64,000 nucleotides of DNA from a virus (taxonomy: Duplodnaviria; Heunggongvirae; Uroviricota; Caudoviricetes): positions 1 through 64,000 of the IMG/VR virus record IMGVR_UViG_2913177423_000001; one strand, 5' to 3'. Under the pieces are notes generated by a model. That model was given only the letters and a program-made list of their open reading frames with translations, searched no databases and was not told the origin of the DNA. A program made the translations under genes and the position numbers. The first letter of the stretch is position 1; each line of letters begins with the position of its first letter. Positions 8,616 to 57,536 of this stretch are shown here, piece after piece.

Positions 8616-8632
8616 AAATTAAATTTCTAACA
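8616..8632 (-). promoter_or_regulatory. C1-like operator motif copy
   Basis: AAATTAAATTTCTAACA, reverse complement of the recurrent TGTTAGAAAATTAATTT motif. Confidence 0.5.
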
Positions 8633-8720
8633 TAGTGTATTTATATACACTGTTGATCCTGTCCGATGTGATCGAGTAGGATCGCGGTCACTGCTCCGGT
8701 AGCGACTGCCAAAAAAAAGC

Positions 8721-8746
8721 AAAAGCCGCTGAGAAGCGGCTTTTTG
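8721..8746. terminator. bidirectional intrinsic terminator
   Basis: GCCGCT-gaga-AGCGGC hairpin flanked by A-run upstream and T-run downstream. Confidence 0.7.
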
Positions 8747-8748
8747 GT

Positions 8749-8776
8749 GTATAAATCTACGGACATAGATTTATAC
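8749..8776. promoter_or_regulatory. perfect 11-bp inverted repeat, candidate operator
   Basis: GTATAAATCTA-cggaca-TAGATTTATAC immediately upstream of gene 8806..9768. Confidence 0.4.
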
Positions 8777-8805
8777 GGTAGATAGATTTTTCACGGAACT
8801 ATCTG

Positions 8806-9768
8806 GTGAATATTTTAAATTCAGTTTCAGTAACTTTCAACACTTCTGAGTATAAAAACAACACTGAATACCACAAAAAAATCAAAGGTCATCAGTTGAG
8901 TTTTTTTGCTCGCCACTGTGGTTTTCTTTCCCCTTCACATAGCGCCATTATTGCCGAGTTCGCCAACCTGGCAGGGGCTACCGATGAATACATGATCCGT
9001 CGCTCATATGCCGATATGTCAGATATTACGGGACGCAGTATTTCAACTGTACGCCGGGCATTTGCTGAAGCGACGAAGTGTGGAATGCTTGTTAAACAAC
9101 ACCAGGTGGCGAATAACAATGCCCAGGTTTGTAACGTATATCGGTTTACAACACAATTTCTCCACTTCATTCATGTTGCAATGGAGATCGGGGGTAAGCA
9201 GGGCATTAAATTTGCCAACGCAACAAAACTGGTTAAGCAGTTGATTTCAAAGGTTCGTTATTTTTTTGAAACTGGGAACCCCCTGTTCAAATTGAACAAG
9301 TCCCCCCATGTTCAAAATGAACAGCCAATAGAAAATAAGAGTAAACCCATAACCAAAAGAAGAGAAAGATCATGCGCGGTTCAGCCGAAGGCTTCACCAG
9401 CAGATAGTTCTCAAGCGGGTAATGGCTTACTGGATAAAAAACCAGTGATTAGAGAAGAGCATGTCAACCACAGCCTGGCTGCGGCAAAAGCGAGAGCTGC
9501 AAAGCGTCGTTCAGACGAGGGCTATGCAAAACAACAGGCTCTGTATCGTACCGCTGAAAAGCTGGCAAAAAAATTTGCATGGATACGTAATGCAGCTGCC
9601 GCAGTGAATAAGCCCAAACCATCCAGTGCTCTGGATTTCTCTATGGATTATTCTGGCTATCAGGGATGTAAAACAGTTGCTGAAGCCTTTGAACTGATGA
9701 AACAGCGTGGCTATCAGTCTGAATTTGACCGTGAAGATTGGTCAGTTCCAGCGGGCTTCAGAGGATGA
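8806..9768 (+). CDS. winged-helix DNA-binding protein, possible regulator or replication initiator
   Basis: 320-aa ORF with GTG start; HTH-like segment DITGRSISTVRRAFAEATKCGMLVK; basic C-terminal region. Confidence 0.4.
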   Translation: MNILNSVSVTFNTSEYKNNTEYHKKIKGHQLSFFARHCGFLSPSHSAIIAEFANLAGATDEYMIRRSYADMSDITGRSISTVRRAFAEATKCGMLVKQHQVANNNAQVCNVYRFTTQFLHFIHVAMEIGGKQGIKFANATKLVKQLISKVRYFFETGNPLFKLNKSPHVQNEQPIENKSKPITKRRERSCAVQPKASPADSSQAGNGLLDKKPVIREEHVNHSLAAAKARAAKRRSDEGYAKQQALYRTAEKLAKKFAWIRNAAAAVNKPKPSSALDFSMDYSGYQGCKTVAEAFELMKQRGYQSEFDREDWSVPAGFRG

Positions 9769-9824
9769 CTCGCGAGTGCCTACAAAATATCCCAATGACC
9801 GGAAAATGTTCGCTCGGAAATTTG

Positions 9825-9841
9825 TGTTAGAAAATTAATTT
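9825..9841 (+). promoter_or_regulatory. C1-like operator motif copy
   Basis: TGTTAGAAAATTAATTT, exact match to the inferred consensus. Confidence 0.5.
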
Positions 9842-10183
9842 GCTGTTGCTAAATCGCAATGTATGATCTGCATCATCGACTGAAATCATCCATTGCTGAA
9901 ATTTTTAGTTGATCTTCCTAATGTTCAGGCTTATATTCACGTCGTCGTAGCAAATTCTGCGACCAGGTTTGACAGCCTGAATGTTAGTGCGGACAACCGC
10001 AGATTTCCGATATTGCGGTATTTTTGTGTCCGTAAACCGCGTTACGCCCGAATTATGGTGGGGCGTGATGGGGAGGCTTCGGCCTGCTGGTTTCACTAAC
10101 GCCAGTCTGTCAACCCTGTCACGTCCTGCCACCTGTTTGACAGCGGGTAGCAGGTTGTTAAACCTGTTAGTGAGGCCGTAACT

Positions 10184-10408
10184 ATGGTTAATGCCAATCC
10201 TTGCTCACGTCCAGAATTCATCTGGCGTTTCCACTCCCTGCAAAAACACTGCGATCACTTCGCAATTGCCGCAACCGAAAAAGAAGCCCGTTCTCTGATC
10301 CCTGATCAGTATGGTGTTCTTACTGGTCGTTTCTCTACTTCCCAACAACCAAACACTAATCCCTGGTATCGCAATATTACCAATCCCGGCATTGCGGAGG
10401 CACACTGA
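10184..10408 (+). CDS. hypothetical 74-aa protein, paralog of 46953..47168
   Basis: ATG with GTGAGG upstream; shares EFIWRF and AATE-EAR motifs with ORF 46953. Confidence 0.5.
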   Translation: MVNANPCSRPEFIWRFHSLQKHCDHFAIAATEKEARSLIPDQYGVLTGRFSTSQQPNTNPWYRNITNPGIAEAH

Positions 10409-11115
10409 TGGATATCTGCATTCTTGAAAAGCCATCAATGACCAGCATTGAGATCGCGGAGCTGGTGGGAAGTCGTCCAGATAACGTAAAAATATCAATA
10501 GAGCGCCTGGCTAAATCTGGAGTTATTCAACTTCCTGCATTGCAGGTTTTCGAAAAAATCAATAACTTAGGACTACGCCGTAGTGTCGAGGCTTACGTCT
10601 TCGAAGGCGAGCAAGGCAAACGAGACAGCATTATTGTCGTTGCGCAGCTCTCTCCCGAATTCACCGCCCGGCTGGTGGACCGCTGGCGCGAACTGGAAGA
10701 ACAAGCACGCCAGCCGTTGACCGAAATAGAGATGATCGCCGCAATGGCTGCAAATGCAGTTCAGCAACAAAAGCGGCTTCATGTTGTTGAGTCAAAGGTT
10801 AGCCAGGTGGTAGAAACCGTCGAGCAAATCAAGAAGGGCAACATGCCAGATGGTTACATTGGCTACCGCCAGCTGGCGGCGAAATGTGGCCTGACCGAAG
10901 CCAAATGTCGCAACCTGGTTAACGCTTACCGGATTCCCACCGATACGCATGAGTTTTTAACGCCAGAGGGGATATTGTCGCGTCGTTCTATTGTGGCCTT
11001 ATTTCCCTTTATGAACGCTTTTACCCTGATGATGTCGGAGGCCGAGCGCCGCGGGAAACGCTGGTATCACCCAAGAATGGGCCAATTCCAGGTGATCGGT
11101 TGGGGAGGTGAGTGA
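10408..11115 (+). CDS. Rha-family phage regulatory protein
   Basis: N-terminal MTSIEIAELVGSRPDNV motif typical of Rha proteins; ATGA coupling; paralog of 47168..48094. Confidence 0.6.
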   Translation: MDICILEKPSMTSIEIAELVGSRPDNVKISIERLAKSGVIQLPALQVFEKINNLGLRRSVEAYVFEGEQGKRDSIIVVAQLSPEFTARLVDRWRELEEQARQPLTEIEMIAAMAANAVQQQKRLHVVESKVSQVVETVEQIKKGNMPDGYIGYRQLAAKCGLTEAKCRNLVNAYRIPTDTHEFLTPEGILSRRSIVALFPFMNAFTLMMSEAERRGKRWYHPRMGQFQVIGWGGE

Positions 11116-11312
11116 TGGACATCATGCAGGCGGTAAAAAATATCAGGGAAGGACGGGCTGAAGTGTGCCGCCGCAAAGCATGGAATATTGGTGTATGGGC
11201 ATGGCCTGATAATTGCTCTACAACCGGATGGTTTTGTATTAACGGACACCAGATCCGGGAAGTTGATTTATCGACGGCTGATATAGTCGGTAATGATTGG
11301 ATCGCGACTTGA
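11112..11312 (+). CDS. hypothetical 66-aa protein, homologous to the C-terminus of 47168..48094
   Basis: shares VCRR, GVW-WP and DWI motifs with the C-terminal part of the fused paralog. Confidence 0.45.
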   Translation: MMDIMQAVKNIREGRAEVCRRKAWNIGVWAWPDNCSTTGWFCINGHQIREVDLSTADIVGNDWIAT

Positions 11313-11320
11313 AGCGTGAT

Positions 11321-11346
11321 GCCCCGGCCTGGCCGGGGCTTTTTTC
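11321..11346. terminator. bidirectional intrinsic terminator
   Basis: GCCCCGGCC-tg-GCCGGGGC hairpin followed by TTTTTT; lies between convergent genes. Confidence 0.7.
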
Positions 11347-11830
11347 ATGCCTCATTGGTTGAGGTTGCTGCATCTCCGACTGGTAACAGAGCTGTATTGC
11401 GTGGCTCGCCAGCAGGCCAGCGATAGCCCGACACTCTTGATGTCGGGAATGCACGAATATTCACCGCATCCCCCTGGTTCCCACCCAGGACAAGCAGATC
11501 GCCATTGGCGCGGCGTCCGACGATGAAGCCTACATGCCCACCGCCTACGCGGGTAAATACAACGATACATCCGTATGCTGGTGTATCCAGTTTCTCGCCC
11601 CAATCCAGATAGGATTTTGCCGACTCAAATCTTGTTGAGCGGATACCCACACGCTCTAACATTGCGCCAACAAATGCTGCGCACCACGGAGTTTCATCGT
11701 CTTTAATTCCGCCGCGTTTAATATCCCTCCAGAACTGGACGATTTCTGGATTGTGTTTAGCCCCTTTGATTTCAGTCAGGCCAATATGTTTACGGGCTTC
11801 CATCAGCCAACGAGGATCGGAACTTACCAT
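11345..11830 (-). CDS. CHAP/TIGR02594-like peptidoglycan hydrolase, endolysin candidate
   Basis: ATG with GAGGGG upstream; Cys motif TPWCAAFV and His motif GGHVGFIVG typical of CHAP-type hydrolases. Confidence 0.5.
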   Translation of the reverse strand: MVSSDPRWLMEARKHIGLTEIKGAKHNPEIVQFWRDIKRGGIKDDETPWCAAFVGAMLERVGIRSTRFESAKSYLDWGEKLDTPAYGCIVVFTRVGGGHVGFIVGRRANGDLLVLGGNQGDAVNIRAFPTSRVSGYRWPAGEPRNTALLPVGDAATSTNEA

Positions 11831-12021
11831 AACTACCCCTCTGATTAACAAACGAACATAAACTATGGGGAGTATGTGATTTTCATGGCAGCAATTTTCT
11901 TATCCCGGTACGCCCATAAGCCTTCCTTGTCCGTGGCATGTTGAGTGTTAACCGTATACTGAATGTTTGAGCTTTCTCATTAATTAACTATATGATTTAA
12001 ATCATAAATGTTGTTACGTTT

Positions 12022-12053
12022 CTTATTGTAGGATAGAACTGTCCCACAATAAG
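12022..12053. promoter_or_regulatory. imperfect 12-bp inverted repeat, candidate operator
   Basis: CTTATTGTAGGA-N8-TCCCACAATAAG just upstream of gene 12065..12436. Confidence 0.35.
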
Positions 12054-12064
12054 AGATTGCAAAC

Positions 12065-12436
12065 ATGAGACTGACAAGAAGAAAAAAAGAGATACTCAGC
12101 TACTTTGAACCGGATAACCGTGAGTGGGTGACAATGGAGATTGGATCGCCTCCGTTTGATGTGTCCGGGGTGGCTTACTTGCTGCATAGTACGGATGCAA
12201 TCGACAAACAGTATTATCTCGAATCAACAAGGCGAACACTTGAGGCTATGGTGCGTGATGGCCTGCTTGAACGGGTAAAATCGTATGAGAGGCGACAGAA
12301 CAGGACTCAGAGCGGTTGTGGCGATGGTGTTCGTTGTATGGTTGTTCGTTATGGCCTTCCAGGTCAGTGTGCTGTTATGCGAGATGATGCCGGGGGTGAA
12401 CACGCAATAGACGGTGAGTTCGTTCGTATCGCCTGA
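12065..12436 (+). CDS. hypothetical 123-aa protein upstream of darB-like gene (Ulx position)
   Basis: ATG at 12065; stop abuts the giant ORF; function inferred only from position. Confidence 0.45.
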   Translation: MRLTRRKKEILSYFEPDNREWVTMEIGSPPFDVSGVAYLLHSTDAIDKQYYLESTRRTLEAMVRDGLLERVKSYERRQNRTQSGCGDGVRCMVVRYGLPGQCAVMRDDAGGEHAIDGEFVRIA

Positions 12437-15400
12437 CCTTTTCCGCTCTTATTCTTCCAAATTAACACACTCCATACCCTTTCAAACCGTACCGCTACAG
12501 GCGGATTTAACGGTTTTGAGGGGGCTTCCTTTGGACAAAATAATTGATTCAATTAGCCAGGCCACCAGCATTGGGGCGCTGATTGAAATTGTTAGTCGGT
12601 TGCATAAACCGCGATCTGTTGCGACCTTTGGCGTTAAGAAAGTCGATGGTGTCAGCATTCAAAAAACACGGCGGGCAGCAAACAACGCCGCAGTAGAGCT
12701 TCTTAATTCCCTTCCGCCCGGATTCGATGGGGCGAAATTAACTGAAGAACAGCGTCAGATTCTCGCCGGGTATACAGGTGAAGGCGGCCTTACTGACGGC
12801 GAGGGCAGCCAATACGAATACTACACACCACAGTTTATGGCTGAAGGTATATGGGATCTGTTTGCTGACTACGGTATTGATGGGGGTCATGTACTGGAAC
12901 CATCAGCTGGCACGGGTATTTTCCAGGAGACAAAACGGCAGGGAATGATAATGACCAGCGCCGAGCTGTCTCCGATCTCCGGTCGAATCAACCAGCTGTT
13001 GCACCCGGAAGACGATGTGAACATTGGGGCGTTCGAGGCTCTGGCGGCGAAAGACGCAATGTATGACCACGCTGTTGGTAACGTACCGTTTGGCGAAGGC
13101 CGTTCCGGCGTTGCAGGGCTTGATCCGGCATATGCAAACGAGAAGAACGTTGGCAATTACTTTGTGCTGCGCACGATCGACAAGGTTAAACCTGGTGGGC
13201 TTATCGTATTGGTGGTGCCGAATGGCATGACTGATGGTACGAAATACAAAAAATTGCGCGATAAAGTCAGCCGTAAAGCGGAATTTTTGGGCGCGCATCG
13301 TATGCCTTCCGGTACGTTCAGTGAATCAGGTACAGATACCGTGGTGGACGTATGGGTATTGCGTAAACATCCAGAAGCCTTCCTGGAGATGATCCCCGAT
13401 ACGGACGATTCGACGCTCAAATCGGCAAACGTCCTTTGGGATACCTTTCTCAAAGGGAAATGGTTCACTACGGAAGGAAAACGCTTTGTTTACGGCGATA
13501 TGGAGCGTACCAGCTTCCGCAATACCCTGGTGGTGAAAAAGGACGGTCGTGTATCCAATGAGTCGATGAAAACCGCGCTATCTCGTCGCTTTGATAGTCG
13601 CATCAATTGGGATTTGCTCGGCGTAACTACTCAGGCATGGCAGGGCGCGAAAGTGGGCGATAAACGCCTTGTAGGCGGCATCTGGCATGAGTTTGATGGC
13701 CTGAAATGGGTCAAGGACACGACAACCAAATCCTCCGCGCTTGATGTAAGCCGATATGGTGTTTCGACGTTTGGCGATCTGCAGATCGCGTTTCAGTCAA
13801 CAAATGGCATTCTGGCGTTGTCATGGGACCAGATATCGGCGATCGCGTCCGACTATCCATCGGTTATCAGTGATGAAGTAGCTGCAATGATTCGCTTTGC
13901 AGGCAAGCAGCGAGAAAAAGACAGAGAGCGCGTTATGCGCGGCGCACTGATAGGGCAGTTGATCAACAAGGCGCTTGATTTGCGTAACCTGGGGGTGAAT
14001 GTTGATGACAAACTGGCAGATGCATCCCGCCTGGCGGCAGCAGAAGTTGCGAAGTATGGACCACCGCACGCGATTAAGCTGAATGGGATTGTTGAAGCTG
14101 GCGCTAAAAACTGGATGACGTTCACTGGGAACGTGAAACAGGATGGCTCTACTTCGGACCTTCTTGCCGGACGACTTGATGTAACTAATGGCGCATCAGG
14201 TATCGACTTTGCTCGCCCGGAACAGGTTGTTACACACCTTTTCAGCGATGTGGCCCTTAATCCGATAACACTGGACGATTTCCGTGAGGCGTTTACTGGC
14301 GAACTGCCAGAAGACGACGATGCCGCTCTGGAATACCTGGCTAAATTTGAAGATATCGCTATTGATGGGTATGGCTGCCTGCTACCAATGGACCGCGCCA
14401 CCAGCGGCGACATTGCAACCAAAACAGCATTGCTGGTGGGCTGGCGTGATGCAGCAACAGGTGAGCAGAAAGCGAACTTTGAGCGCCAGTTGGCGAAAAT
14501 CGAAGAGAAACGCATTTTCACGCCACTAAATAAAGTCACCGTTAATCTGAATGCCCGCTGGCTGGACCGCCGCTTGATAAAAGAGTTCCTGGCAGAACAG
14601 GGCTATGACGAGTTTAAGTACACAGAACCTGATCTGAAGGTCGTCGATGGCATTCTGGTATCCCCGGACGATTACGAAGGTAAGGACGGGGTATTTACTG
14701 GCTATCAGCTACGAACCGTAAACGGCAAAAACGGGAATGAGTTCAAGAAGGCCAACAATAAAGACGGCTTCCTGAACCAGTTAGAAAACTACCTGAACGG
14801 CGTCAAACCGCGAGGGCAGAACGCTAACGAGTACCTGGATAAGATTGCTCAACTTGAAGTTAGCTTTAACGACTGGTTACGCACTCACCCGCAGGCTGAT
14901 CAGATAGCCCGCGACTATAACGACGCATTCAATGGCTTCATCCCGTTTACACATTCTGACGCACCGCTTGGCCTGGAAGGGATTAGTGGGAAGCGCATTC
15001 CTCTGACTTATCAGAATGAGGAAGTTCGTCGCTTGTCAGAAGATGGGCGCGGCATCATGGGATTTGGCACCGGGCTTGGTAAAACCACGACTGCGCTTGC
15101 ACTTGAGGCGTATAACTTCGAAACAGGCCGAACTAAACGCACCTGTATTGTTGTCCCGAAAGCGGTTTATCAGAACTGGTATCACGAGGCTCAGAGCTTC
15201 TACAGTCCAGAAGCCTTCTCAAATATGATGTTTATCGGGCTTGATGAAGTTCGTGATGACGGCGGCAATATTCTTACCGCGCCAGTGCTTGATGAAAATG
15301 GTGAACCACGTCTGGACAGAAACGGTCAGCCTCTTACCCGCAATGTGGTGAAAGAGTCCTCCAGTGCCGTTATCGTTCAGCGCATGAACATGATCCCGTC

Positions 15401-18400
15401 GTCAAATTGGCGAACGGTCATCATGACAAAAGAACAATTCGCGTCTATCCCGCTACGAGAAAAAACCATCGAGGAGAACTCACAGCAAGCTGTCTTTAAT
15501 GCTGTTGAAATGGGGCGTCTTGACCTGGCGTCTGGCAAGCACCGTGACGCGCAGAAGAAGAACAAGATTAAGGACCAGGCCGCAAATACCGGGACCACGA
15601 AGAAGCAGAATATCCCGTACTTTGAGGATATGAACTTCGATAGCGTGATTGCCGACGAAGGGCATAACTACCGCAACTCATTTAATGCCGGGCGTGAAGC
15701 GGGGCAGATGGCATATTTGCCTAACCCGGCAGTATCCAAAATGGCCCGCGACATGGCTGTAAAAGCTGCGTACATGATGAAACGCAACAACGGGCGCGGA
15801 GTAGTTATGCTGACGGCAACACCGCTGGTGAACAGTCCGATTGATGCTTTCAACATGCTGTCTACTGTTATTCCGCAGGAAGAGTGGATGCGCATGGGCA
15901 TTATTACGCCGGATGATTTCGTTCGTGTGTTTGGCAAAACTGCCACCGTTCAGGTCCAGAAAATTTCCGGGGAAGTGGAAGAGAAGCAGGGGCTGGTGGG
16001 CTTCCAGAACCTTGATGGTCTGCGTGGTATTTTCCACCGTTGGACCACTCTGAAGACTGCTGCGGATGTTGGAGCGACGGTCAAAATCCCCGACATCATC
16101 GAGAATACCTTGCAGATCCCGATGACAGGGGAGCAGGAGGCTGCTTATGAAGAGCTTCGCAAGCGTGCACAAGAATTAAGTCGTAAAGATGCGCTGACAG
16201 TCGATGAAAGCGGGCATATCACAAGCGAAAAGCCGGATGACTTCATCTTCTCCATCATCCGCGACATGGATAAGGTTGCTATAGATCCGGATCTGTATGC
16301 CAGTGCGATTACATTCCAGTTCCCCGTTGAGCTTGCAGACAAGGTAAAAGCTATTGCTGATGGCCTGCCAAAAGTAGCTGGCGGTAAAGTGGCAGATGAT
16401 GCAGACGAGGCCGAGGAAGACGGCGCTGGCGGGCTGGTTAGTACGCGTACCAGCAAGGTAGTGAAGACCACCTTTAGTGAACATCCGGCGCATGTTGAAA
16501 TACGTGCCAGCATTGAACTGGAGGCTGAAATACTGAAGGCCATTGCTGCCGCCGGGATTGATATGCAGCAGGTATCACACCCCATCCCGCCGAAGTATGC
16601 CGCGCTGATCGAAAACCTTCGTGAAGGCCTGAAGAACGGTAAACAAATCGTCTTCATTGATGAAAAAGCCCAGCACCAGAAGCTGCGCCGTATTATCGCC
16701 AGTGCACTGCAAATGCCGGAGCAGGAGATAGGCATTATCAATGCGACGACCGTTAGCCAGGCTGGCGGCATCAAGCTGAAGAAGGTGAATAAGCCGACCG
16801 AACCTACTCCGAATAAAAACGGTGAATACAAAGAAGGGGCATGGGAAACCTACTACAGCAAACTTGCCCAATATGAGGATTATCTCTCAGCTAAAAATGA
16901 TGCTGGCCTTGAGGGTATGGAAGGCATTGCCGCCGACTATAACGAAGGTCGCACGCGCATCATTATCTGTAACAAGAAGGCTGAAGTAGGTATTAACCTG
17001 CATATCGGGACAACCGATATCCACCACCTGACACTACCCTGGACACCAGCCAGTATCGACCAACGAAATGGGCGCGGTGCGCGCGTAGGTTCACCGCAAG
17101 AGAAGGTCAATGTTCACTACTATTGTGGCAAAGGCACATTCGACGACTTCCGTCTGGATACGCTGAAACGTAAGAAAGACTGGATCAAGATGGTGATGAC
17201 CTCCGACATGTCAGAGATCGCCAATGGTGATGCGGATGATGCTGATGAACGCGCCATTATGCTGGCGGCAAACCCGGAAGAACGCCGCGCAATCATGGCT
17301 CGCCAGGCGCAAGAGCGTGAAGAACGTCTGAAACTGAAAGCACAGCGCGAGGCCAACAATGCTCTCGATATCTACCTGAAAGCGGCAAACGCCGCCGGAA
17401 AAGATATCGGCATGATGGAGACAGAACTGAAAAGCGCGATGGAACAGATAGAGTATTACCAGCGAAATCTTGACGACCTGATAAAAGCGGGTACGAACAG
17501 GAATGGGCAAAAATACGCGCTTGAGCAGTTGAGTAGCTACAGAAAACGTGCGCGGGTGCTGCGGTTTGCGATCACCAGGGCAAAAGACGCGGATACCATA
17601 ATGAAACGCTCTCGTGGTGATGTGGAGCGCGCTATTAAGTCTGGTGTGCTGGATATCAGTATCGATGTTATTCAGAACCCACAGGAATATATGCGCACTG
17701 ACAAGAATATCCTGTTGCATAAAGGTAGTTATTACCGTGCAGTCATTGATGATCGCGAAACAACAGCGATTGTCCGGGTGGAAAAAATTGACGGTGAAAA
17801 AGCACAATACCTCTGCCGTATCGCCTGGCTGGATAGAGCAAGTCGTTACGCTCGATCACCGGGGTCTATCGTTACATTGCCGTTTGACTCTGTGATTGAA
17901 GCGGTAACTTTTGAAGAGGGGGTAGCTGAATCGCGCGCAACGGCTGCGCGTGGTGTTCAGTGCCACCAGCTATCAACAATACTTACTCGCGATCAGTTCT
18001 ATGATGCTATTCGCAATGGGGTAATGAATGTTATTGCTGGTAAACCTGGTAATGCATGGGGCGGTGGGTCAGCTATTAAATACTGGGCATATCGCACAGA
18101 TGATGGTCAGATCGCGCTGTCATCGGCCTATGATGGCGTGATAGGCCAAAAAATCGGGCGAGCATCGGATATAGCACCTGAGCGATGGATATATCCTGAT
18201 GGCAACGACGAGGCGCTGAAGCGTGAAGTGGCAAAAATACAAGCCAGTGATAACCCGCTGAATATCGTGGACGGCGAGGGATTCCTCCAGGCATTGTATG
18301 GGTATGATTACATCCAGGGAATGCAGGCATGGGGCGCACAGGCAACGATGGATGATGTTGCCCAGGAGTTCGAAAACTGGATGGCTGGGCGTGGTCTGTC

Positions 18401-19367
18401 AGGTCGCTCGCTTAATAAAGTCACTTCTGAAGATATTCTTAGCTTGTTCCGCAAACCGTCCGGAGAAGGTCTGGAATCATTCTGGAGGACCGTGCTGGCA
18501 TACCGTTTATTCAAGGGCAGGATGAAAGCCTTTAGCAATATCGATGATATTGAACGGATGTTTAATCAGGTCAAGATCGCGAAAATTAAGACGAAGATCG
18601 AAAAGACACGTTCTGCGCTGGTGGCCTGGCGCGATGCATTGTTTGAGCAATATAAATCACTCAGTGATGCAGATGGATGGGCGGCACTGGAACAGTTGGC
18701 GAATAATGGGGTAGATGGAGCGAAACTCGCCATAGTCCAGGCTGATAACCCCCTGGAATCACCGGCAGCACAGTGGATTAAGGTGGGTGCTGTCATCAAT
18801 GCCTTTGATGAAAAACACATCAGTAAGGACGATTTTGCTGATGCTGTTTCCCTTAATCGCCTGGTAGAAATGGCTGTCCGCCGCGCTCGTGAGTTGAAAG
18901 ACGGTGACTATGTGAATGAGTTGCCAGATGCGCTCAAATCGGCAACGTGGCAAGACTATGTATCGCTGAAAAACGGCGGGGCCACTGAATCAGAGATCGC
19001 GGAAAGGCTTGAGCAGGCTGAAAGCAAAAGAGAAGAGCAGGCGGCAGAGGCTGAAGCCAGGGCTGATGAAGCGGCGAATGATGACTATATCATTGTGGTT
19101 AATGATAAGCCGATTCGCGCTAAGGCACGTGTTCGCGGGCGCTGGTGGAGTGTCAGCGAGGACGTTGGCGCGGTTTATCTCATTGCCGATCAGCCAGGTT
19201 CCTCGACAATACGGAACGCCAAAGACGCCATTAAGAAGATTGGCGGGCGTTTCTGGAATTTTGAAGCAAACCCGGTTGCTGATGTGAACTTTGACCGTCC
19301 GGCATGGATGGTATCTACGCGTTACTCGGTAGATGAACTGCGTAAAATAATAACCAACGCGGCCTAA
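12414..19367 (+). CDS. darB: DarB-like giant methyltransferase-helicase, putative anti-restriction protein
   Basis: 2317-aa ORF; SAM-MTase motifs LEPSAGTGIF and NVPFGE, helicase motifs GFGTGLGKTT, DEGH and QRNGRGARVGS; true start probably TTG near 12531 after GAGGGG. Confidence 0.8.
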   Translation: MSSFVSPDLFRSYSSKLTHSIPFQTVPLQADLTVLRGLPLDKIIDSISQATSIGALIEIVSRLHKPRSVATFGVKKVDGVSIQKTRRAANNAAVELLNSLPPGFDGAKLTEEQRQILAGYTGEGGLTDGEGSQYEYYTPQFMAEGIWDLFADYGIDGGHVLEPSAGTGIFQETKRQGMIMTSAELSPISGRINQLLHPEDDVNIGAFEALAAKDAMYDHAVGNVPFGEGRSGVAGLDPAYANEKNVGNYFVLRTIDKVKPGGLIVLVVPNGMTDGTKYKKLRDKVSRKAEFLGAHRMPSGTFSESGTDTVVDVWVLRKHPEAFLEMIPDTDDSTLKSANVLWDTFLKGKWFTTEGKRFVYGDMERTSFRNTLVVKKDGRVSNESMKTALSRRFDSRINWDLLGVTTQAWQGAKVGDKRLVGGIWHEFDGLKWVKDTTTKSSALDVSRYGVSTFGDLQIAFQSTNGILALSWDQISAIASDYPSVISDEVAAMIRFAGKQREKDRERVMRGALIGQLINKALDLRNLGVNVDDKLADASRLAAAEVAKYGPPHAIKLNGIVEAGAKNWMTFTGNVKQDGSTSDLLAGRLDVTNGASGIDFARPEQVVTHLFSDVALNPITLDDFREAFTGELPEDDDAALEYLAKFEDIAIDGYGCLLPMDRATSGDIATKTALLVGWRDAATGEQKANFERQLAKIEEKRIFTPLNKVTVNLNARWLDRRLIKEFLAEQGYDEFKYTEPDLKVVDGILVSPDDYEGKDGVFTGYQLRTVNGKNGNEFKKANNKDGFLNQLENYLNGVKPRGQNANEYLDKIAQLEVSFNDWLRTHPQADQIARDYNDAFNGFIPFTHSDAPLGLEGISGKRIPLTYQNEEVRRLSEDGRGIMGFGTGLGKTTTALALEAYNFETGRTKRTCIVVPKAVYQNWYHEAQSFYSPEAFSNMMFIGLDEVRDDGGNILTAPVLDENGEPRLDRNGQPLTRNVVKESSSAVIVQRMNMIPSSNWRTVIMTKEQFASIPLREKTIEENSQQAVFNAVEMGRLDLASGKHRDAQKKNKIKDQAANTGTTKKQNIPYFEDMNFDSVIADEGHNYRNSFNAGREAGQMAYLPNPAVSKMARDMAVKAAYMMKRNNGRGVVMLTATPLVNSPIDAFNMLSTVIPQEEWMRMGIITPDDFVRVFGKTATVQVQKISGEVEEKQGLVGFQNLDGLRGIFHRWTTLKTAADVGATVKIPDIIENTLQIPMTGEQEAAYEELRKRAQELSRKDALTVDESGHITSEKPDDFIFSIIRDMDKVAIDPDLYASAITFQFPVELADKVKAIADGLPKVAGGKVADDADEAEEDGAGGLVSTRTSKVVKTTFSEHPAHVEIRASIELEAEILKAIAAAGIDMQQVSHPIPPKYAALIENLREGLKNGKQIVFIDEKAQHQKLRRIIASALQMPEQEIGIINATTVSQAGGIKLKKVNKPTEPTPNKNGEYKEGAWETYYSKLAQYEDYLSAKNDAGLEGMEGIAADYNEGRTRIIICNKKAEVGINLHIGTTDIHHLTLPWTPASIDQRNGRGARVGSPQEKVNVHYYCGKGTFDDFRLDTLKRKKDWIKMVMTSDMSEIANGDADDADERAIMLAANPEERRAIMARQAQEREERLKLKAQREANNALDIYLKAANAAGKDIGMMETELKSAMEQIEYYQRNLDDLIKAGTNRNGQKYALEQLSSYRKRARVLRFAITRAKDADTIMKRSRGDVERAIKSGVLDISIDVIQNPQEYMRTDKNILLHKGSYYRAVIDDRETTAIVRVEKIDGEKAQYLCRIAWLDRASRYARSPGSIVTLPFDSVIEAVTFEEGVAESRATAARGVQCHQLSTILTRDQFYDAIRNGVMNVIAGKPGNAWGGGSAIKYWAYRTDDGQIALSSAYDGVIGQKIGRASDIAPERWIYPDGNDEALKREVAKIQASDNPLNIVDGEGFLQALYGYDYIQGMQAWGAQATMDDVAQEFENWMAGRGLSGRSLNKVTSEDILSLFRKPSGEGLESFWRTVLAYRLFKGRMKAFSNIDDIERMFNQVKIAKIKTKIEKTRSALVAWRDALFEQYKSLSDADGWAALEQLANNGVDGAKLAIVQADNPLESPAAQWIKVGAVINAFDEKHISKDDFADAVSLNRLVEMAVRRARELKDGDYVNELPDALKSATWQDYVSLKNGGATESEIAERLEQAESKREEQAAEAEARADEAANDDYIIVVNDKPIRAKARVRGRWWSVSEDVGAVYLIADQPGSSTIRNAKDAIKKIGGRFWNFEANPVADVNFDRPAWMVSTRYSVDELRKIITNAA

Positions 19368-19403
19368 CTAATAAGGAGCGGCCCCGGTTGGGGCCGAATT
19401 AAA

Positions 19404-19838
19404 ATGACGACATTAATCGATACCGTTAAACCGACAGAATCTTACCTTGAAGAAATTTTGCCGCAGGCGCTCAATGGCAGGAGTGAAGACGAGTTCCTGA
19501 CAGTATATCTTGCTGGGATGGTTGAAAGGCTAAAGAAAGATCCACAGCTTTATCACCTTTATGGTCCGTGGTGGCCTGCGCTTAAAACGATATTGCTGGA
19601 GCGCGGCGACACATCATTTGGACAGGTTGTAGATAGCGATGTGGCAGAGATCTACAGAATGAGTCGCCCGGCGCTTACGGTTTTAGCCGGGCATCTGTAT
19701 TCGAGCGAGCGCCTGGAAAATGACGCGGTATACAATCCAGTTCATGCTCTGGAAGTTGCACCTTATGCTGATGATACAGAGCCATACGTATACACTAGTT
19801 ACGACGAGTCTATAGAGAAATATCGAATTATGGGGTAG
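19404..19838 (+). CDS. hypothetical protein (144 aa)
   Basis: ORF following a GC hairpin after darB-like gene. Confidence 0.5.
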   Translation: MTTLIDTVKPTESYLEEILPQALNGRSEDEFLTVYLAGMVERLKKDPQLYHLYGPWWPALKTILLERGDTSFGQVVDSDVAEIYRMSRPALTVLAGHLYSSERLENDAVYNPVHALEVAPYADDTEPYVYTSYDESIEKYRIMG

Positions 19839-19840
19839 TC

Positions 19841-20101
19841 ATGCGAAAGAACCGTCGGTTTACGCTCGAAGACCTAAAGGAATATTCCATATCGAAGGGG
19901 TATGTCCTTGAGTTCCACCGTTACAAGAAGGTTTTTACGCTGCGAAAAGCAGAAAAACCAGCGAGCTGGAGCTGGGTATACTTCCCTCATACAGAAGACA
20001 AACTGGTAGAGCTTGTTGACGATTTGACCTATGAAGGTTGGCTAATCGCAATCGACAAGACAATCACAGAAATATCCGAACCGGATAAAATAAATCTTTA
20101 A
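19841..20101 (+). CDS. hypothetical protein (86 aa)
   Basis: tightly spaced after the preceding ORF. Confidence 0.45.
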   Translation: MRKNRRFTLEDLKEYSISKGYVLEFHRYKKVFTLRKAEKPASWSWVYFPHTEDKLVELVDDLTYEGWLIAIDKTITEISEPDKINL

Positions 20102-20240
20102 AAATAACAGGTTGGGTAAATGCCATGCGATTTACCCGCCTTGTTGATTAAGGTCACTCTTTACTCTAAAAGCAAATCCGACCTGTTGCATATAGCCCAG
20201 CCTTGAGTAGTATCTCTCTTGTTTTACAAATCTAACGTAG

Positions 20241-20732
20241 TTGTTATTATTTCGCTTATTTACTATCAATGGGTGTGTTAGAAAAATAGCGCGAAAAAGA
20301 AGGCGTCGCAGTGAATATTCTGAAACATCCCCACATGCCGCAGCTCTCAGAGAACTGGAGAAAAACCCAGATCTAATCAAAAGGAACCATGAGCATTACG
20401 AGCAGGTTCGCGTCCTGGACTGGTTGTATCGCAATATGCGCTATGTGTATGAGCATACTCACGCCACTCCAAACGGCGGTCTGCGAGGCATAAGGACGGC
20501 AATAAAGATGGTGGCAGAAGGCCAAAAGAAGGGATATCCCGATCTTTCTATAGACCTTGCTTGCGGGGGATACCACGGAATGCGCATTGAGATGAAACAT
20601 GGGAGAAATCGCCTGACTCCCGAACAACTCGTCTGGATGACTCGCCTCACTGAAGCAGGTTACTACTGCTTTGAGGCGCGCAGTGCCGCTGAAGCCATAA
20701 AAGCTATCACGGAATATGTTTGTCTTGATTAA
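20241..20732 (+). CDS. VRR-NUC domain nuclease-like protein, start uncertain
   Basis: C-terminal KGYPDLSIDL, GYHGMRIEMKHG and LTPEQLVWMTRLTEAGY resemble VRR-NUC; first in-frame ATG is at 20436; track start is TTG. Confidence 0.5.
   Translation: MLLFRLFTINGCVRKIARKRRRRSEYSETSPHAAALRELEKNPDLIKRNHEHYEQVRVLDWLYRNMRYVYEHTHATPNGGLRGIRTAIKMVAEGQKKGYPDLSIDLACGGYHGMRIEMKHGRNRLTPEQLVWMTRLTEAGYYCFEARSAAEAIKAITEYVCLD
20276..20292 (+). promoter_or_regulatory. weak C1-like operator motif copy
   Basis: TGTTAGAAAAATAGCGC matches the left 11 positions of the motif. Confidence 0.3.
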
Positions 20733-20746
20733 ACGGAGAAATCGTT

Positions 20747-20947
20747 TTGCGTTTACTTAACGTGGCTGAACTTATCCCTGCTGGTGCTAACGTTGTTGCT
20801 CGCCGTCGGTCCTGGCAGCAACCATTGTGTGTTGAGTTGTCGAAACACAGCAATGGAACAATAGAGGCTCGCAATATTGTTACTGGTGATAAGGTTCACA
20901 TTACCCCGGAAAGTACAGGCGCTGATGATTGGGAGTTTGTACATTGA
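20747..20947 (+). CDS. hypothetical protein (66 aa)
   Basis: TTG start with GGAG upstream. Confidence 0.35.
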   Translation: MRLLNVAELIPAGANVVARRRSWQQPLCVELSKHSNGTIEARNIVTGDKVHITPESTGADDWEFVH

Positions 20948-21243
20948 GCAAAAAACATTATGTGAACCTGACGTTTGCTGATGACGCCGGGAGAACGCGG
21001 AGCATAACGCTCAACACTGCCCGCAAGGTGGTAACCGCGCCGTTAATCCGTGAAGCCCTCAGGGAGCTGGATATGGGTGAGAACTCGGCCCTGTTGTCGG
21101 TTAGCTGGCTAGGGAAAATGTCAGAGAAAGAATACGTAGACGGACTTACTCCAATAACAGCTATGAGACTGCTTTCATTGTTGCAATGGGCTATCGTGCC
21201 TTTATGCATCGTGTATTTTATCTACCAGGCAATGACACAATAA
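20929..21243 (+). CDS. hypothetical protein with C-terminal transmembrane helix
   Basis: hydrophobic C-terminus LLSLLQWAIVPLCIVYFIY; start uncertain. Confidence 0.4.
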   Translation: MGVCTLSKKHYVNLTFADDAGRTRSITLNTARKVVTAPLIREALRELDMGENSALLSVSWLGKMSEKEYVDGLTPITAMRLLSLLQWAIVPLCIVYFIYQAMTQ

Positions 21244-21250
21244 CCGCTCA

Positions 21251-21277
21251 AAAACCCGCCGACTAGCGGGTTTTTTG
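21251..21277 (+). terminator. intrinsic terminator
   Basis: CCCGCC-gacta-GCGGG hairpin followed by TTTTTTG. Confidence 0.7.
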
Positions 21278-21335: not shown

Positions 21336-21345
21336 TGCAAAAGTA

Positions 21346-45504: not shown

Positions 45505-45534
45505 TGTTAGAAAATCAATTTTGAATATCTAACA
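45505..45534. promoter_or_regulatory. inverted pair of C1-like operator motifs
   Basis: TGTTAGAAAATCAATTT on plus strand overlapping TGTTAGATATTCAAAAT on minus strand, in the divergent region upstream of the ref-like gene. Confidence 0.5.
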
Positions 45535-45582: not shown

Positions 45583-46161
45583 ATGCAGAGACAGAGTTAT
45601 TGGGAGAAACAGAGACAAAAAGCCATGCAAAAACTGGCTGATCCGGAATGGCGGGAAGAGCAAAGGGCAAAACGTCTTCAGCAGGCTCAACGCCAGCAGC
45701 AACGCGCAAGGGAAAAAGCCGCATCGCCTGAATATCGTCAAAAGAAACTTGAAAAAGTGAGGCAAAGTGAACAGCGCAGAAGAGAGAGGGCGGCGTCAGC
45801 CCTCCCCAAAAAAACGCGCCCGTCACGCGGATTAAAAGGGAGATCACTCACAGCAGAAGAGCGCCGGATACAGGAGGCTATAGGCAAACTCCCCTGTATT
45901 GCCTGCCATCTTCACGGGAAGCATAGCCCTGTCGTATCTCTCCACCACATATTTGGCAGAACGGCTAAAGATGCCCATAAATACGTTCTCCCTTTGTGTA
46001 AATGGCACCACCAGCACGCAGCGCCAGCAGAGATCCGCGAACAATATCCCTGGTTGGTTCCTGTTCATGCTGATGGAAAAATAGGCGGGAAAGCAGATTT
46101 TATACGGCACAATGCCGAAGAGATGACGCTCTATCAGACGGTGCAAGAAATGGTGAATTAA
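45583..46161 (+). CDS. ref: Ref-like HNH endonuclease
   Basis: 192 aa; highly charged disordered N-terminus followed by HNH-like Cys/His cluster CIACHLHGKH and CKWHHQ, as in P1 Ref. Confidence 0.7.
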   Translation: MQRQSYWEKQRQKAMQKLADPEWREEQRAKRLQQAQRQQQRAREKAASPEYRQKKLEKVRQSEQRRRERAASALPKKTRPSRGLKGRSLTAEERRIQEAIGKLPCIACHLHGKHSPVVSLHHIFGRTAKDAHKYVLPLCKWHHQHAAPAEIREQYPWLVPVHADGKIGGKADFIRHNAEEMTLYQTVQEMVN

Positions 46162-46171
46162 TTTTCTAACA
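46155..46171 (-). promoter_or_regulatory. C1-like operator motif copy
   Basis: GAATTAATTTTCTAACA, 16 of 17 to consensus, overlapping the ref-like stop. Confidence 0.5.
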
Positions 46172-46952
46172 TTTTATGTTGAGTTTGAAATTTACTGATT
46201 GTACATTTTGATTAGATTGGTTCACCGCTCGACGCAACGAGACAAATCCTCAAGGATTTCGTATGATTGCCAATGTCATAGTTATGGCAGCGCAATACAG
46301 GTGGCTAAAAGCCCCCGTTGACTCACGGTGTTCCAACCTGTATTGCGCCGCCACCAGACCGTGGAACAGTCTGTGACGGCTTCGAAAGCAAGGAGTCACT
46401 ATGAACAATTACAAACTTTTCCCATCACTCACCGTCTACTCACGCAATAACCTGCGTTCTTTGCTCCCATCAAAACTGGAGGGAGTATCAAAATGACCGT
46501 TCGCTACCTGAATTATCAAATCCAGAACATCACTGGCGGTTGCTATGACTGGTTTGTCACTCTTGGTAAAGAAGTGATCACCGGGAAGCTGGATGAAGTG
46601 AAAGCTAAAGCAATGGCCTACGCCTGCAAGCAAGCCCAAAAGAAGAAAAGAAAAGCATAAGAAAACACACTGTTGCGCCCTGGCATTATCGTGGGGTATA
46701 TTTCTACGGCACCTTAGAAAAACGGGTGCCGGGATTGGTCTCCCGGTAATGTCAAAGGCGACACATAGACGCCGCAAGCGTCTTTTTTGTTGTCGGCGCA
46801 CTCGCACACCTATCAATGGTGGGCTGTGTGGTGGCTTCCTCGGAAGCGCCGGTTCCCTTTGACGCCGGTAAGACCAACTCCACACAGTCCACCGCCAGTA
46901 AGATTGGTCTCTTCGGCGGTGGTATCGTTCACTGTCAAAGGAGGCTGCCAAT

Positions 46953-49865: not shown

Positions 49866-50095
49866 TTTTCAACCTTTTGCCACAAATCCAGACCAACTAC
49901 CTAATAATAATAACTAACCACTCTGTTTTTTTGATAAGCACCAAATCGTTTACAAAAAAAATAGCAAATGACTATTGACACTATTCTGGAAATCACAAAC
50001 TGCACATAATCCATCGCGCTAACGGCTCCCGTTGAAGGTTCTTTTGACGATTAACTTTCAGCCGAAGCGCGGTAGGGAGTCATAACGCCAAAGCA

Positions 50096-54222: not shown

Positions 54223-54291
54223 ATGAATTGAAATCACAATCTCCAGACAATGCACCTTCGATACCTGATACATCGACCTTTGAGGATGCTT

Positions 54292-55083: not shown

Positions 55084-55847
55084 TGTCAAACAATACCCTC
55101 CTGGCGCGGATCGGCGAATGGCAGACAACACGCACAGGGAAATTCCAGACTACTGGCCTTGAGAGCGTGGATAACGCGTTCGCTTCGCTCATTAGCAACA
55201 TTTTTTCAGATATCTTGCTGGTGGAACCTACGCGAGAAGAAAAGCGTTTTGCATCGTTTCTGAATCGCCCACCAGCCGAACGTGTTTACGTGGCTCGTTT
55301 CGATAATGCTATTGAGTTTCTTAAAGCCGTGCGCCGCGCAAATGCCGGGCAAGGAAGAAAACCGGAAAACCAGAACATTAATCGCGATGCCTTGCCGTTG
55401 ATCAACATCTCCCGGTCTATGGATATCAGCTATATCAATGATGATCAGCAGATAGACCGCAGGCAAACTGCCAGTTTTTGCAACCCGGATACTGGAATGC
55501 CTTTAGCGACTCTGGAATACACCCAGGCTATCCTGACTTATGACGTTACGTTAATGGCTACTGATAAAGCAACCATGAGTCTGATGTGTAATTCGCTGGG
55601 CGCGCGGCTCCGCCTGATGACCGGAACACAATTTGAGGCAAACACTAACCTGGTGCGTGTTCCTGTTCCTCTGATTTGCTCCATTCAGGATGCTAAAGAC
55701 GTTGGATTTACGGATGTTTCGGCACCCGTGGGAGAAGAGAGGATTTATGCTACTCAGGCACCTGTAAGCGTCATTGCGGATGTAATCACAGCCTGGGAAT
55801 TGGACGCGAAACGCGTTGTTACTGAAACCTCGCTGGCTATGGGGTAA
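55083..55847 (+). CDS. hypothetical protein, possible tail/baseplate component
   Basis: ATGA-coupled within the same block as the spike-like gene. Confidence 0.4.
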   Translation: MSNNTLLARIGEWQTTRTGKFQTTGLESVDNAFASLISNIFSDILLVEPTREEKRFASFLNRPPAERVYVARFDNAIEFLKAVRRANAGQGRKPENQNINRDALPLINISRSMDISYINDDQQIDRRQTASFCNPDTGMPLATLEYTQAILTYDVTLMATDKATMSLMCNSLGARLRLMTGTQFEANTNLVRVPVPLICSIQDAKDVGFTDVSAPVGEERIYATQAPVSVIADVITAWELDAKRVVTETSLAMG

Positions 55848-55850
55848 TCA

Positions 55851-56831
55851 ATGTCCCAGGAGTTACAACAATACTTCCTCCAGTCAGTCACAATTAACGA
55901 TAACAAAGTGCCACGAGACTGGATTTTTACCGCAGTGTACGTGGAAAAGAGCAGCCTTAAAGCGCCGTTATTGAAGCTGGAAATTCATGACATGACAGGC
56001 ACCATAATTGATGACTGGAAAGCTAAATACGGTGCATCGCTGGTGGCTGAAATGGGCGATCCAAACGGTAATGCTGGCACTTTTAAAACAACTTTTTTTG
56101 TTACGTCAGCAATGCTGGCTGGGGATGTAGTTACCGTTATTGCGGTCAGTGAAGACGTGCATCGGTTTAAGATCCCCTCCCCTCGCACCAATCTACACAC
56201 GAACAAAACGCCGGACACCATATTCAAGGCGTATAGCGGCAATCTTAAAATTTCCAGCAGTGTCCTAAAGCGTGCGGTTACATATCACCTGAACGCAGGC
56301 GACAAGCCGTCAAAAATGCTCTCAGAGATAGCACGCGACAAAGGTGCATTGTGTTGGGTCTGCCGGGGAGAATTTAACTTTTACACCCTGGCTGATCTGA
56401 TGAAGCAAACTCCATCCTTCACCTACGAAGGTAATAATCCACAAGCGAAATACACCTTGTCAAAAATGCGCATGATTCAACAGGAACATGCGACAACAGC
56501 AAAGAATCAGTACCGTTTTGTGGGCTATTCCATGACTGATGGTTATATCGAATATGGCGATAGTTCCCTGCCTGTACGTTACATATCCGATTCCGATATG
56601 GAAACTCTTCGCAATATGCAGCTGTCTCTCGTCCCCAAAATGGATATAGAAGTTGCAGGCAATCCGGATATAAAGCCAGGAATGCTGATAGAGATTCTTG
56701 TATACCGTTATGATCAAGAAAACCGTATCGATGAATCAATGCCACGTAAGCTCATAGTGAAAAACGTCGCTCACTTTGAAGATCGTATAGGCTACACAAC
56801 CAGAATGATATTAGGAGTGCCAAATAAGTGA
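55851..56831 (+). CDS. putative baseplate hub protein (gpD/Mu gp44-like position)
   Basis: 326-aa ORF immediately upstream of and overlapping the gpV-like spike gene. Confidence 0.35.
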   Translation: MSQELQQYFLQSVTINDNKVPRDWIFTAVYVEKSSLKAPLLKLEIHDMTGTIIDDWKAKYGASLVAEMGDPNGNAGTFKTTFFVTSAMLAGDVVTVIAVSEDVHRFKIPSPRTNLHTNKTPDTIFKAYSGNLKISSSVLKRAVTYHLNAGDKPSKMLSEIARDKGALCWVCRGEFNFYTLADLMKQTPSFTYEGNNPQAKYTLSKMRMIQQEHATTAKNQYRFVGYSMTDGYIEYGDSSLPVRYISDSDMETLRNMQLSLVPKMDIEVAGNPDIKPGMLIEILVYRYDQENRIDESMPRKLIVKNVAHFEDRIGYTTRMILGVPNK

Positions 56832-57481
56832 AGCGTAGAGCGCAGATAGTAGGAACCGAACACCCGGCAGGACTCATGCGCGCTCAGGTTCGAATTTTAC
56901 CTGACTGGAATGGAGTTCCCGACGATGATCTCCCCTGGGCAGAATACCAGTTACCCATAGGTAACGCGTTTGTACCTACAGTAAAAGGCGACCTGGTATG
57001 GGTAGAGTTTCCTTATCTGGATGTTAATGGTCGAATTGATACCAGACGCCCAATGATAGTTGGCGCGGCTCAGGATGCGCCTGGTGGAGTACCAAACGTC
57101 GCGCCGGAGGCGTCAGGCAATGGTAGCGGCTGGACGCCACCTGAAGTAGACGGAGCGCCTCCCCGCCCGCAATTTTCGGCGACAAAAGATTTCGTTATTC
57201 ACCGCAACAATGTGCTCGAAGTGCGAACGGTTGGCGGTGGATATGAAATAGCGAATACGGCAGCAGGCTCAAGGATAGGAATGAATGAATCAGGGCAGAT
57301 ATACATCATTGGCCCGGCTGATGTAGTAGTGAATGCGGGAGGGAGTGTTAACGTCAAATCAGCCGATAACATCAGCGTTAATGGCAAAAACATTTCTGTG
57401 ACAGCCGACGAAAATATTGATTTCAAGGCAGGAGGCACCTTCCAGGCTATCGCAAGCAACTTTGATTTCAAGAAGGGATAG
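56828..57481 (+). CDS. baseplate spike protein, gpV-like
   Basis: N-terminal OB-fold pattern QVRILPDWNGVPDDDLPWAEYQLPIGNAFVPTVKGDLVWVEFPYLDVNGR typical of phage baseplate assembly protein V. Confidence 0.5.
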   Translation: MKRRAQIVGTEHPAGLMRAQVRILPDWNGVPDDDLPWAEYQLPIGNAFVPTVKGDLVWVEFPYLDVNGRIDTRRPMIVGAAQDAPGGVPNVAPEASGNGSGWTPPEVDGAPPRPQFSATKDFVIHRNNVLEVRTVGGGYEIANTAAGSRIGMNESGQIYIIGPADVVVNAGGSVNVKSADNISVNGKNISVTADENIDFKAGGTFQAIASNFDFKKG

Positions 57482-57490
57482 AAAACACAT

Positions 57491-57536
57491 CCAATTGTGT
57501 TAGATAATTGAATAGAATTTTCTAACACAATTGGTG
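57491..57536. promoter_or_regulatory. large palindrome containing an inverted pair of C1-like operator motifs
   Basis: CCAATTGTGTTAGATAATTGAATAGAATTTTCTAACACAATTGG directly upstream of rdgC-like gene. Confidence 0.55.

Follow-up and report, generated by a model that had tools for sequence, protein, structure and literature searches.

Which protein reads a 17-bp sequence that recurs between the genes of a P1-like plasmid prophage? The question is raised by positions 1 to 64,000 of IMG/VR virus record IMGVR_UViG_2913177423_000001 (hereafter the window, meaning the whole 64,000-nucleotide stretch that was analysed), in which an original prediction, made from the DNA letters alone, had listed the motif at 13 loci and proposed a dispersed operator network of a C1-type repressor like that of phage P1. 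Following up this proposal, we consider it likely, with a probability of roughly 85%, that the motif represents the operator set of a D6-type C1 repressor encoded at 30336-31373. This reading draws on the enrichment of the motif, its placement in noncoding DNA, the match with phage D6, the positional match with P1, footprints in relatives, the switch of the motif with the C1 type and the presence of a C1-family gene in the immC region. Judged by sequence comparison, interpreting the whole as the D6-type version of the P1 C1 operator network is well supported, and from it we infer C1 binding to the sites, its stoichiometry and the identity of the repressed promoters.

A recurrent 17-bp motif in a D6-like plasmid prophage

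Over the immC region (28000-34000), the window shares 88-90% identity with Escherichia phage D6 and 92-93% with many plasmids of E. coli, Shigella and Salmonella, with 196 matching plasmids in PLSDB. Positions 8000-23000 align with D6 at 93% identity across 96% of their length, in reverse orientation. These identities place the window among the plasmid prophages of the P1 family, as a relative of the phage D6 kind. D6 is the prototype of this subgroup (records MF356679 and AY753669 were used) and the closest relative of the P1-like clade (PMC11165635). The gene map of the window was taken from synteny with D6, and the order pacA-pacB-c1-rox-dre is the same in both. Inspection of the annotation revealed no operator features in either D6 GenBank record, and a full-text literature search for the motif, and for D6 together with operator or immunity, returned nothing relevant, its coverage being without the D6 papers.

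All 13 loci read as the original prediction had written them. The 17-mer TGTTAGAAAATTAATTT has 10 matches at ≤3 mismatches in the window against 0.38 expected, a number that none of 100 shuffles reached, and a scan with a position weight matrix (PWM) returned 10 sites above 21 bits, followed by a gap and then by weaker partner half-sites at 12-13 bits. The proposed check by PWM and shuffled controls thus placed the motif well above chance. Because noncoding DNA is more AT-rich, the enrichment test was redone on noncoding DNA alone, where the core TGTTAGAWA occurs 13 times in 7.7 kb (42.7% GC) against 0.17 expected; the maximum in 500 dinucleotide shuffles was 3. Twelve of the 13 loci lie in noncoding DNA, which makes up only 10.7% of the window (binomial P = 2.8e-11).

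Together, the 13 loci comprise 16 half-sites, whose information content resides mostly in tg-TGTTAGAAAAtTA (positions -2 to 13), with the final four positions no more than AT-rich. The aligned sequences define a putative D6-type operator consensus, tg-TGTTAGAAAAtTAAttt, with the invariant core TGTTAGAAAA. Single sites and overlapping inverted pairs are both present, as in P1. The three pairs, beginning at 26941, 45505 and 57498, share the geometry TGTTAGA-N16-TCTAACA and total 30 bp, and a degenerate partner lies at the same distance from three of the nominally single sites. The right arm AAT-AATTT, which had been described as shared with P1, can be read in the window but is not conserved across the D6-type clade, and may therefore reflect simple AT-richness.

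Positions shared with P1 and a core that changes with the C1 type

The C1 repressor of P1 binds 22 dispersed, asymmetric 17-bp operators with the consensus ATTGCTCTAATAAATTT (PMC8546580). In the P1 RefSeq annotation, these include Oref, Omat (overlapping the ref stop), Ossb, Oc4, OrepL, Orlf, Odmt, Obanab, O26, Oppp, OpmgRa, OpmgRb, OpmgT, Olpa and Oc1a-e, with Odmt preceding uhr-hrdC-dmt and the bivalent Obanab preceding the tRNA-tci-ban operon. P1 and the window have the same neighbourhoods occupied: repL, c4, pmgM/R/S, the tRNA operon, lpa, c1, the end of cre or dre, ref and its end, and hrdC-dmt. The sites thus mirror the P1 network, as had been proposed, by lying in the gene neighbourhoods of annotated P1 operators. 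In both cases, an asymmetric site of ~17 bp is present in at least a dozen copies on a ~90-kb plasmid prophage, the repressor gene lies in immC next to pac and a Cre-type recombinase gene, and a C4 antisense RNA is combined with anti-repressor modules, the window carrying an operator (9825) 89 nt upstream of a1b1.

The words themselves differ. The D6-type core TGTTAGAAAA is unrelated to the P1 core ATTGCTCTAAT, the two being mutually exclusive across genomes, and inverted pairs measure 30 bp in the window versus 28 bp in P1. The P1 consensus has no match at ≤3 mismatches in the window or in D6, where only chance matches with 4 mismatches occur, and the D6-type motif is absent from P1. On these reciprocal absences, an operator specificity different from that of P1 is well supported, and the lack of a match to the P1 consensus sets the window outside the P1/P7 specificity group.

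D6 carries the motif at every corresponding place (31563 excepted), with extra sites at 54201 and 72195 and a pair at 80709/80722 in regions that lie outside the window or differ from it. Because agreement with D6 at 93% identity says little, we compared more distant relatives, whose C1 proteins are 96, 89, 80, 72, 52, 48 and 44% identical to that of the window. Across C1 identities of 44-96%, the flanks have diverged but the core does not vary in front of c1, lpa and hrdC, behind dre or around ref. The motif is therefore conserved at orthologous positions, which was the second check that had been proposed. All 34 loci with a D6-type C1 (595 kb) carry TGTTAGAAAA, with 87 exact copies in total and none of the P1 core TTGCTCTAAT, which likewise has no exact occurrence in 750 kb of D6-type DNA. 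Conversely, P1 and three loci with a divergent, 282-294-aa P1-type C1 contain 22 copies of TTGCTCTAAT and none of the D6 core. In the P1-type loci, P1 cores occur before lpa and just after the recombinase gene cre, and the P1-type locus L072 has a P1-type core upstream of ref and at the ref end. Since the word changes while the positions stay, the word is expected to be read by a protein that differs between the two groups, for which C1 is the obvious candidate. The distinct immunity specificity suggested for this element thus stands as a difference from P1; as far as the compared sequences tell, D6 shares it, as do all D6-type relatives with C1 identities as low as 44%, and it is not a property of this element alone. 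A third operator specificity was sought in distant Ref loci and the candidates were dropped: one (L075) has no intergenic space around ref, and another (L073) contains only weak P1-like cores.

Several observations weigh against the assignment to C1. The window protein is just 20% identical to P1 C1; homologues of Lxc and Coi were not detected (tblastn, best E = 0.8 in the window or D6); the promoters that overlap the sites match sigma-70 hexamers weakly (8/12 in a relaxed scan); and three sites are awkwardly placed for simple promoter occlusion, site 8616 lying 173 nt from repL with a hairpin in between, site 21319 ending 10 nt before the pmgS ATG and site 46155 lying 537 nt from the next annotated feature. 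Furthermore, covariation by clade would look alike for C1 and for any other regulator that differs between the P1 and D6 types, such as Lpa (31% identical). The sites might accordingly be bound by another factor, be it a second phage regulator, RepL or a host nucleoid protein, with C1 acting elsewhere. Such a factor could be hidden among the many small open reading frames (ORFs) of the element without known function, and two sites flank repL, which in P1 contains oriL. However, a spread over at least 12 operons, including the c1 upstream region, mirrors the C1 network defined experimentally in P1, not an array of iterons or an origin. Moreover, the only conserved blocks in the c1-dre spacer of relatives are rox, two motif copies and a -35-like CTTTAC, and we saw no other repeated motif in this spacer that could serve as C1 operator. 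We therefore regard binding by a factor other than C1 as very unlikely.

With respect to the missing corepressor, Lxc was also undetected in a D6-like plasmid (PMC6799933). An 86-aa ORF (orf13, 19841-20101(+)) directly follows ulx, the position occupied in P1 by lxc, which encodes the 82-aa C1 corepressor. The orf13 product has no sequence similarity to Lxc, and may be its functional analogue.

Proposed mode of repression and promoter-based alternatives

In the plasmid-prophage state, some twelve asymmetric sites would be bound by C1, probably in monomeric form like P1 C1, and three of these sites form 30-bp head-to-head pairs. Bound C1 would shut down repL, the c4-icd-ant module, pmgM/R/S, the tRNA-tci operon and the late activator gene lpa, as well as the dre-distal operon, ref with its divergent operon, and hrdC with the methylases, and it would regulate c1 itself via a proximal and a distal site. 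At the pairs, the outer cores provide a -35-like TTAGAW and a -10-like TAAYAN, 17 bp apart. Since the cores hold both hexamers, two bound C1 molecules would cover both, and binding would occlude the promoter directly. Obanab of P1 holds the -35 and -10 elements of P1ban within the operator, and the D6-type pairs place their hexamers likewise. A built-in promoter scan called no promoter on the sites, and given the weak matches the promoter assignments are to be read as provisional.

The same hexamers suggest a simpler account, in which the motif is a shared early-promoter element that functions without a dedicated repressor, TTAGAA serving as -35 and TAACAN as -10, or TGnTAGAAA as extended -10. 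The TTAGAW-17 bp-TAAYAN arrangement of the pairs and the degenerate partners that three single sites have at the same spacing would be expected on this account. In contrast, the invariant block of 10 nt is far better conserved than sigma-70 hexamers need, the hexamers themselves are poor (3-4 of 6 positions), and several strong sites (8616, 32787 and 46155) are directed into the gene upstream of them, at its 3' end. In addition, the motif switches cleanly with the C1 type, whereas the host RNA polymerase is the same. The strong sites are oriented both ways relative to flanking genes, which fits an operator rather than a promoter element, and because an overlap of operator and promoter hexamers is documented for genuine P1 C1 operators, promoter-likeness is no argument against an operator. 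A repressor-free promoter element is, in our view, highly improbable.

The original prediction had itself named a late-promoter element recognised by the activator Lpa as the finding that would overturn it. P1-like late promoters consist of a conserved box ~22 nt upstream of the start and a -10 element, and precede morphogenesis and lysis operons. With only 31% identity between the Lpa proteins of the window and P1, the former could recognise a box other than that of P1, AAGTGACTT, which is nearly absent from the window, and two of the sites flank pmgS, annotated as a putative scaffold gene in D6. The 17-mer, however, is not found upstream of prt, ddrB, mat, gene 7, gene 26 or lydA. Instead, ddrB, prt, a lysozyme-like gene, mat and gene 7 are closely preceded by a separate candidate box, AAATCACA-N8-A-N3-T, at 4411-4431(+), 5858-5878(+), 11862-11882(-), 49990-50010(+) and 54231-54251(+). 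This box has 14 matches at ≤1 mismatch versus 6.2 expected, 5 of them exact, and a late box different from that of P1 fits the low identity of Lpa. The 17-mer, on the other hand, precedes lpa itself, c1, repL, c4, ref and hrdC, which in P1 are C1-controlled early and lysogeny genes, and the strong sites 8616, 32787 and 46155 point away from the downstream gene. With the late-type genes carrying AAATCACA-type boxes instead, a role of the motif as late-promoter element is hardly credible, and the late-promoter alternative fails.

Individual sites of the proposed C1 network

The first copy of the motif along the window, a single putative operator at 8616-8632(-), lies between pro (ending at 8605) and repL (starting at 8806), has 1 mismatch and scores 28.1 bits; D6 reads TGTTAGCAATTTAATTT at the matching place. 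By neighbourhood, it would be the counterpart of P1 OrepL. Between this operator and repL, a hairpin at 8721-8744 has a G+C-rich 10-bp stem (AAAAGCCGC...GCGGCTTTT) and T runs, and is terminator-like on both strands. Beyond repL, a single site at 9825-9841(+), positioned upstream of the module of c4-a1b1/C4 RNA, icd and ant, matches exactly and is identical in D6. Its surroundings suggest that it is the counterpart of Oc4.

Four sites are associated with the pmg and tRNA genes. At the 5' end of the pmgM ORF, a weak operator at 20276-20292(+) reads TGTTAGAAAAATAGCGC and matches in its left arm alone; P1 has O26 and Oppp near pmgL-pmgM. In relatives whose flanks are 71-75% identical, the left arm of 20276 is kept and the right arm is nearer to the consensus. 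A single operator at 21319-21335(+), with 1 mismatch, is situated between pmgR and pmgS and is retained in 18 of 19 aligned relatives. Even in the relative L007, whose C1 is 52% identical, TATTAGAAAAATAGATT is found at the pmgR-pmgS junction, and the P1 counterpart region has OpmgRa/b. A single operator with 1 mismatch (22569-22585(+)) heads the tRNA-tciA region, 2 nt beyond the stop codon of pmgS; its left arm TGTTAGAAA is invariant in 21 relatives and its right arm variable. A second, weaker operator (22725-22741(+); TGTTAGAAAATTACAGG, 12 bits) lies 156 nt further downstream; its left arm is kept in D6, L007 and nearly all of the 21 relatives, four of which have an insertion there. Just as Obanab heads the tRNA-tci-ban operon of P1, 22569 and 22725 head the tRNA-tci region of the window. 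Given that the left arms of 20276 and 22725 persist in relatives with flanks just 71-88% identical, the two weak sites are probably real. On the 3' side of 22569 and 22725, three tRNA genes, for Arg(TCT), Thr(TGT) and a Met/Ile2-type (CAT), are located at 23812-23968 and 25441-25516. The set differs from that of D6, where Ser, Thr and Asn are annotated at the corresponding place.

A bivalent operator, TGTTAGATAAATGGAATTAATTTTCTAATA, forms a 30-bp inverted pair at 26941-26970, directly after orf5 and 78 nt upstream of lpa. The pair contains TTAGAT-17-TAATAT and is kept in all 22 distinct lpa-upstream sequences, including those with a C1 only 44-52% identical. Its location makes it the likely counterpart of P1 Olpa. 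The lpa leader (27010-27048) harbours a conserved stem, CCCCTCGG...CC(T/C)GGGGG, that includes the ribosome-binding site. A late-box-like AAATAACATTCTCATTATCAT precedes it, and distant relatives retain the stem as well as this sequence.

Around the repressor gene, the c1-proximal operator at 31385-31401(-) reads TGTTAGAAAACTAAATC, ends 11 nt before the c1 ATG and is the presumed site of c1 autoregulation. A comparison of 20 distinct sequences from upstream of c1, covering C1 identities of 44-100%, shows TGTTAGAAAA, just before the c1 start, to be the longest block without variation. While this site had been listed correctly, a conserved c1-distal operator had been missed: ATTTAGAAAATTCTGCT at 31475-31491(+), in inverted orientation and ~75 nt from the proximal site. 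Within the c1-dre spacer, TTTTCTAA hardly varies among relatives, being a perfect TGTTAGAAAA in L007 and TGTTAGAA in L008. The two sites, given their distance, recall the Oc1 cluster of P1. The weak site claimed at 31563-31579(-), AGTTAGAAAATTAGGAA, was rejected. It overlaps an arm of rox by 5 nt, its GTTA is part of rox, and D6 and most relatives read TATAA instead; by this lack of conservation it is probably not an operator. The rox site itself, a target of the Dre recombinase at 31575-31606, reads TAACTTTAAATAATGCCAATTATCTAAAGTTA and has one mismatch to the D6 rox, a T-to-C change in the right arm that also occurs in several relatives.

At the other end of dre, a single operator with 2 mismatches (32787-32803(-)) overlaps the stop codon, 58 nt upstream of the orf117-dut operon. 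All 31 aligned relatives retain it. In L007 and L008, the most distant of the relatives, a site also follows dre, though its position is shifted. Two further operators bracket ref. Between a leftward operon ending at 45336 and ref, which starts at 45583, the bivalent inverted pair TGTTAGAAAATCAATTTTGAATATCTAACA spans 45505-45534 and appears from its context to be the counterpart of Oref. It persists in 26 distinct D6-type sequences from upstream of ref, including those with flanks that cannot be aligned (L059-L069, L074). The single operator at 46155-46171(-), with 1 mismatch, overlaps the last 7 nt of ref and is kept in 19 of 20 distinct ref-end sequences; since Omat of P1 overlaps the ref stop, it can be viewed as the positional counterpart of Omat.

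Finally, a bivalent inverted pair at 57498-57527 lies 13 nt upstream of the hrdC (rdgC)-methylase genes, as a putative counterpart of P1 Odmt. Among 16 distinct sequences, its half-sites are invariant and the central 6 nt variable. The enclosing palindrome, given as 46 bp in the original prediction, measured 44 bp (57491-57534; 19-nt arms and a 6-nt spacer). Its outer stem shows compensatory changes in relatives (CCAATTG/CAATTGG, CCATTTG/CAAATGG and AAAACTG/CAGTTTT), with 7 of 19 predicted pairs changed on both sides. This pattern suggests a hairpin or cruciform constraint besides protein binding, and the palindrome is perhaps the end of the late gene 7-24-6-5 transcript.

The candidate repressor and its predicted fold

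The candidate repressor gene c1 (30336-31373(-)) encodes 345 aa and lies between pacB and rox/dre, as in D6. Its product is 89% identical to D6 C1 and aligns with P1 C1 from residue 7 at 20% identity over 244 aa (E = 1e-8). The window protein and its relatives all match PF27008 (Phage_P7_repressor_C1), and together with the P1 alignment and the immC location this family match bears out the earlier assignment of the ORF as a C1-type repressor. Compared to P1 C1 (283 aa), the window C1 has an extra helical C-terminal region. A scan of species-representative genomes yielded no confirmed C1 relatives.

For the predicted C1 model (pLDDT 85, pTM 0.54), the best structural match was Tus, with TM-scores of ~0.3. 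The resemblance to the Tus-Ter system of E. coli concerns the fold of the repressor only and is not accompanied by sequence similarity: hhalign gave a probability of 0.4% for a C1-Tus link, no PDB sequence matched at E ≤1, and none of the papers searched links C1 and Tus. Tus acts as a monomeric clamp around ~21 bp of asymmetric sequence, which matches what is reported for P1 C1, and a clamp of this kind would suit the shape of the operators. Taking the resemblance as a lead, we lean slightly towards the C1 repressors of the P1/D6 phage-plasmid family being Tus-fold proteins. Many sites directly follow the stop codon of the preceding gene, and two (8616 and 9825) flank the lytic replicon repL/oriL. 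Dispersed operators that would also act as roadblocks against read-through transcription, and possibly against replication forks, in the prophage state are conceivable, though we consider this unlikely. Of polar arrest, a trait of Tus-Ter, no sign was seen here: the orientations of the window sites are mixed relative to flanking transcription (3 tail-first, 5 core-first), with no consistent polarity.

Further features of the element

The window contains two immI-like modules, compared to one C4/icd/ant module in P1. In the first, the C4 antisense RNA (10051-10136) has its a1b1 targets at 9931-9983; in the second, the C4 RNA (46812-46899) is preceded by an isrK-like RNA (46709-46788). Both C4 RNA loci were assigned by Rfam, and each module continues with icd and an Ant-family gene. 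Chi sites (GCTGGTGG) number 44 against 1.6 expected; they are distributed over 10461-63720, with none in the first 10.4 kb, and are also plentiful in relatives. An abundance of Chi is a known trait of P1.

Implications for the P1/D6 phage-plasmid family

D6-like phage-plasmids are common in E. coli, Salmonella and Shigella, and the operator word allows the immunity regulon of the D6 type to be annotated in them. As the core stays the same for all D6-type C1 variants, even at 44% identity, the word also helps to predict mutual immunity, and it aids the design of virulent or inducible derivatives and of orthogonal repressor/operator pairs to be used beside those of P1. A Tus-like fold of C1, if true, would explain the long asymmetric operators and would link a phage immunity repressor to the fold of a replication terminator. 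At fixed genomic positions, P1- and D6-type elements present a natural swap of specificity within one repressor family, which should be useful for understanding how C1 reads DNA.

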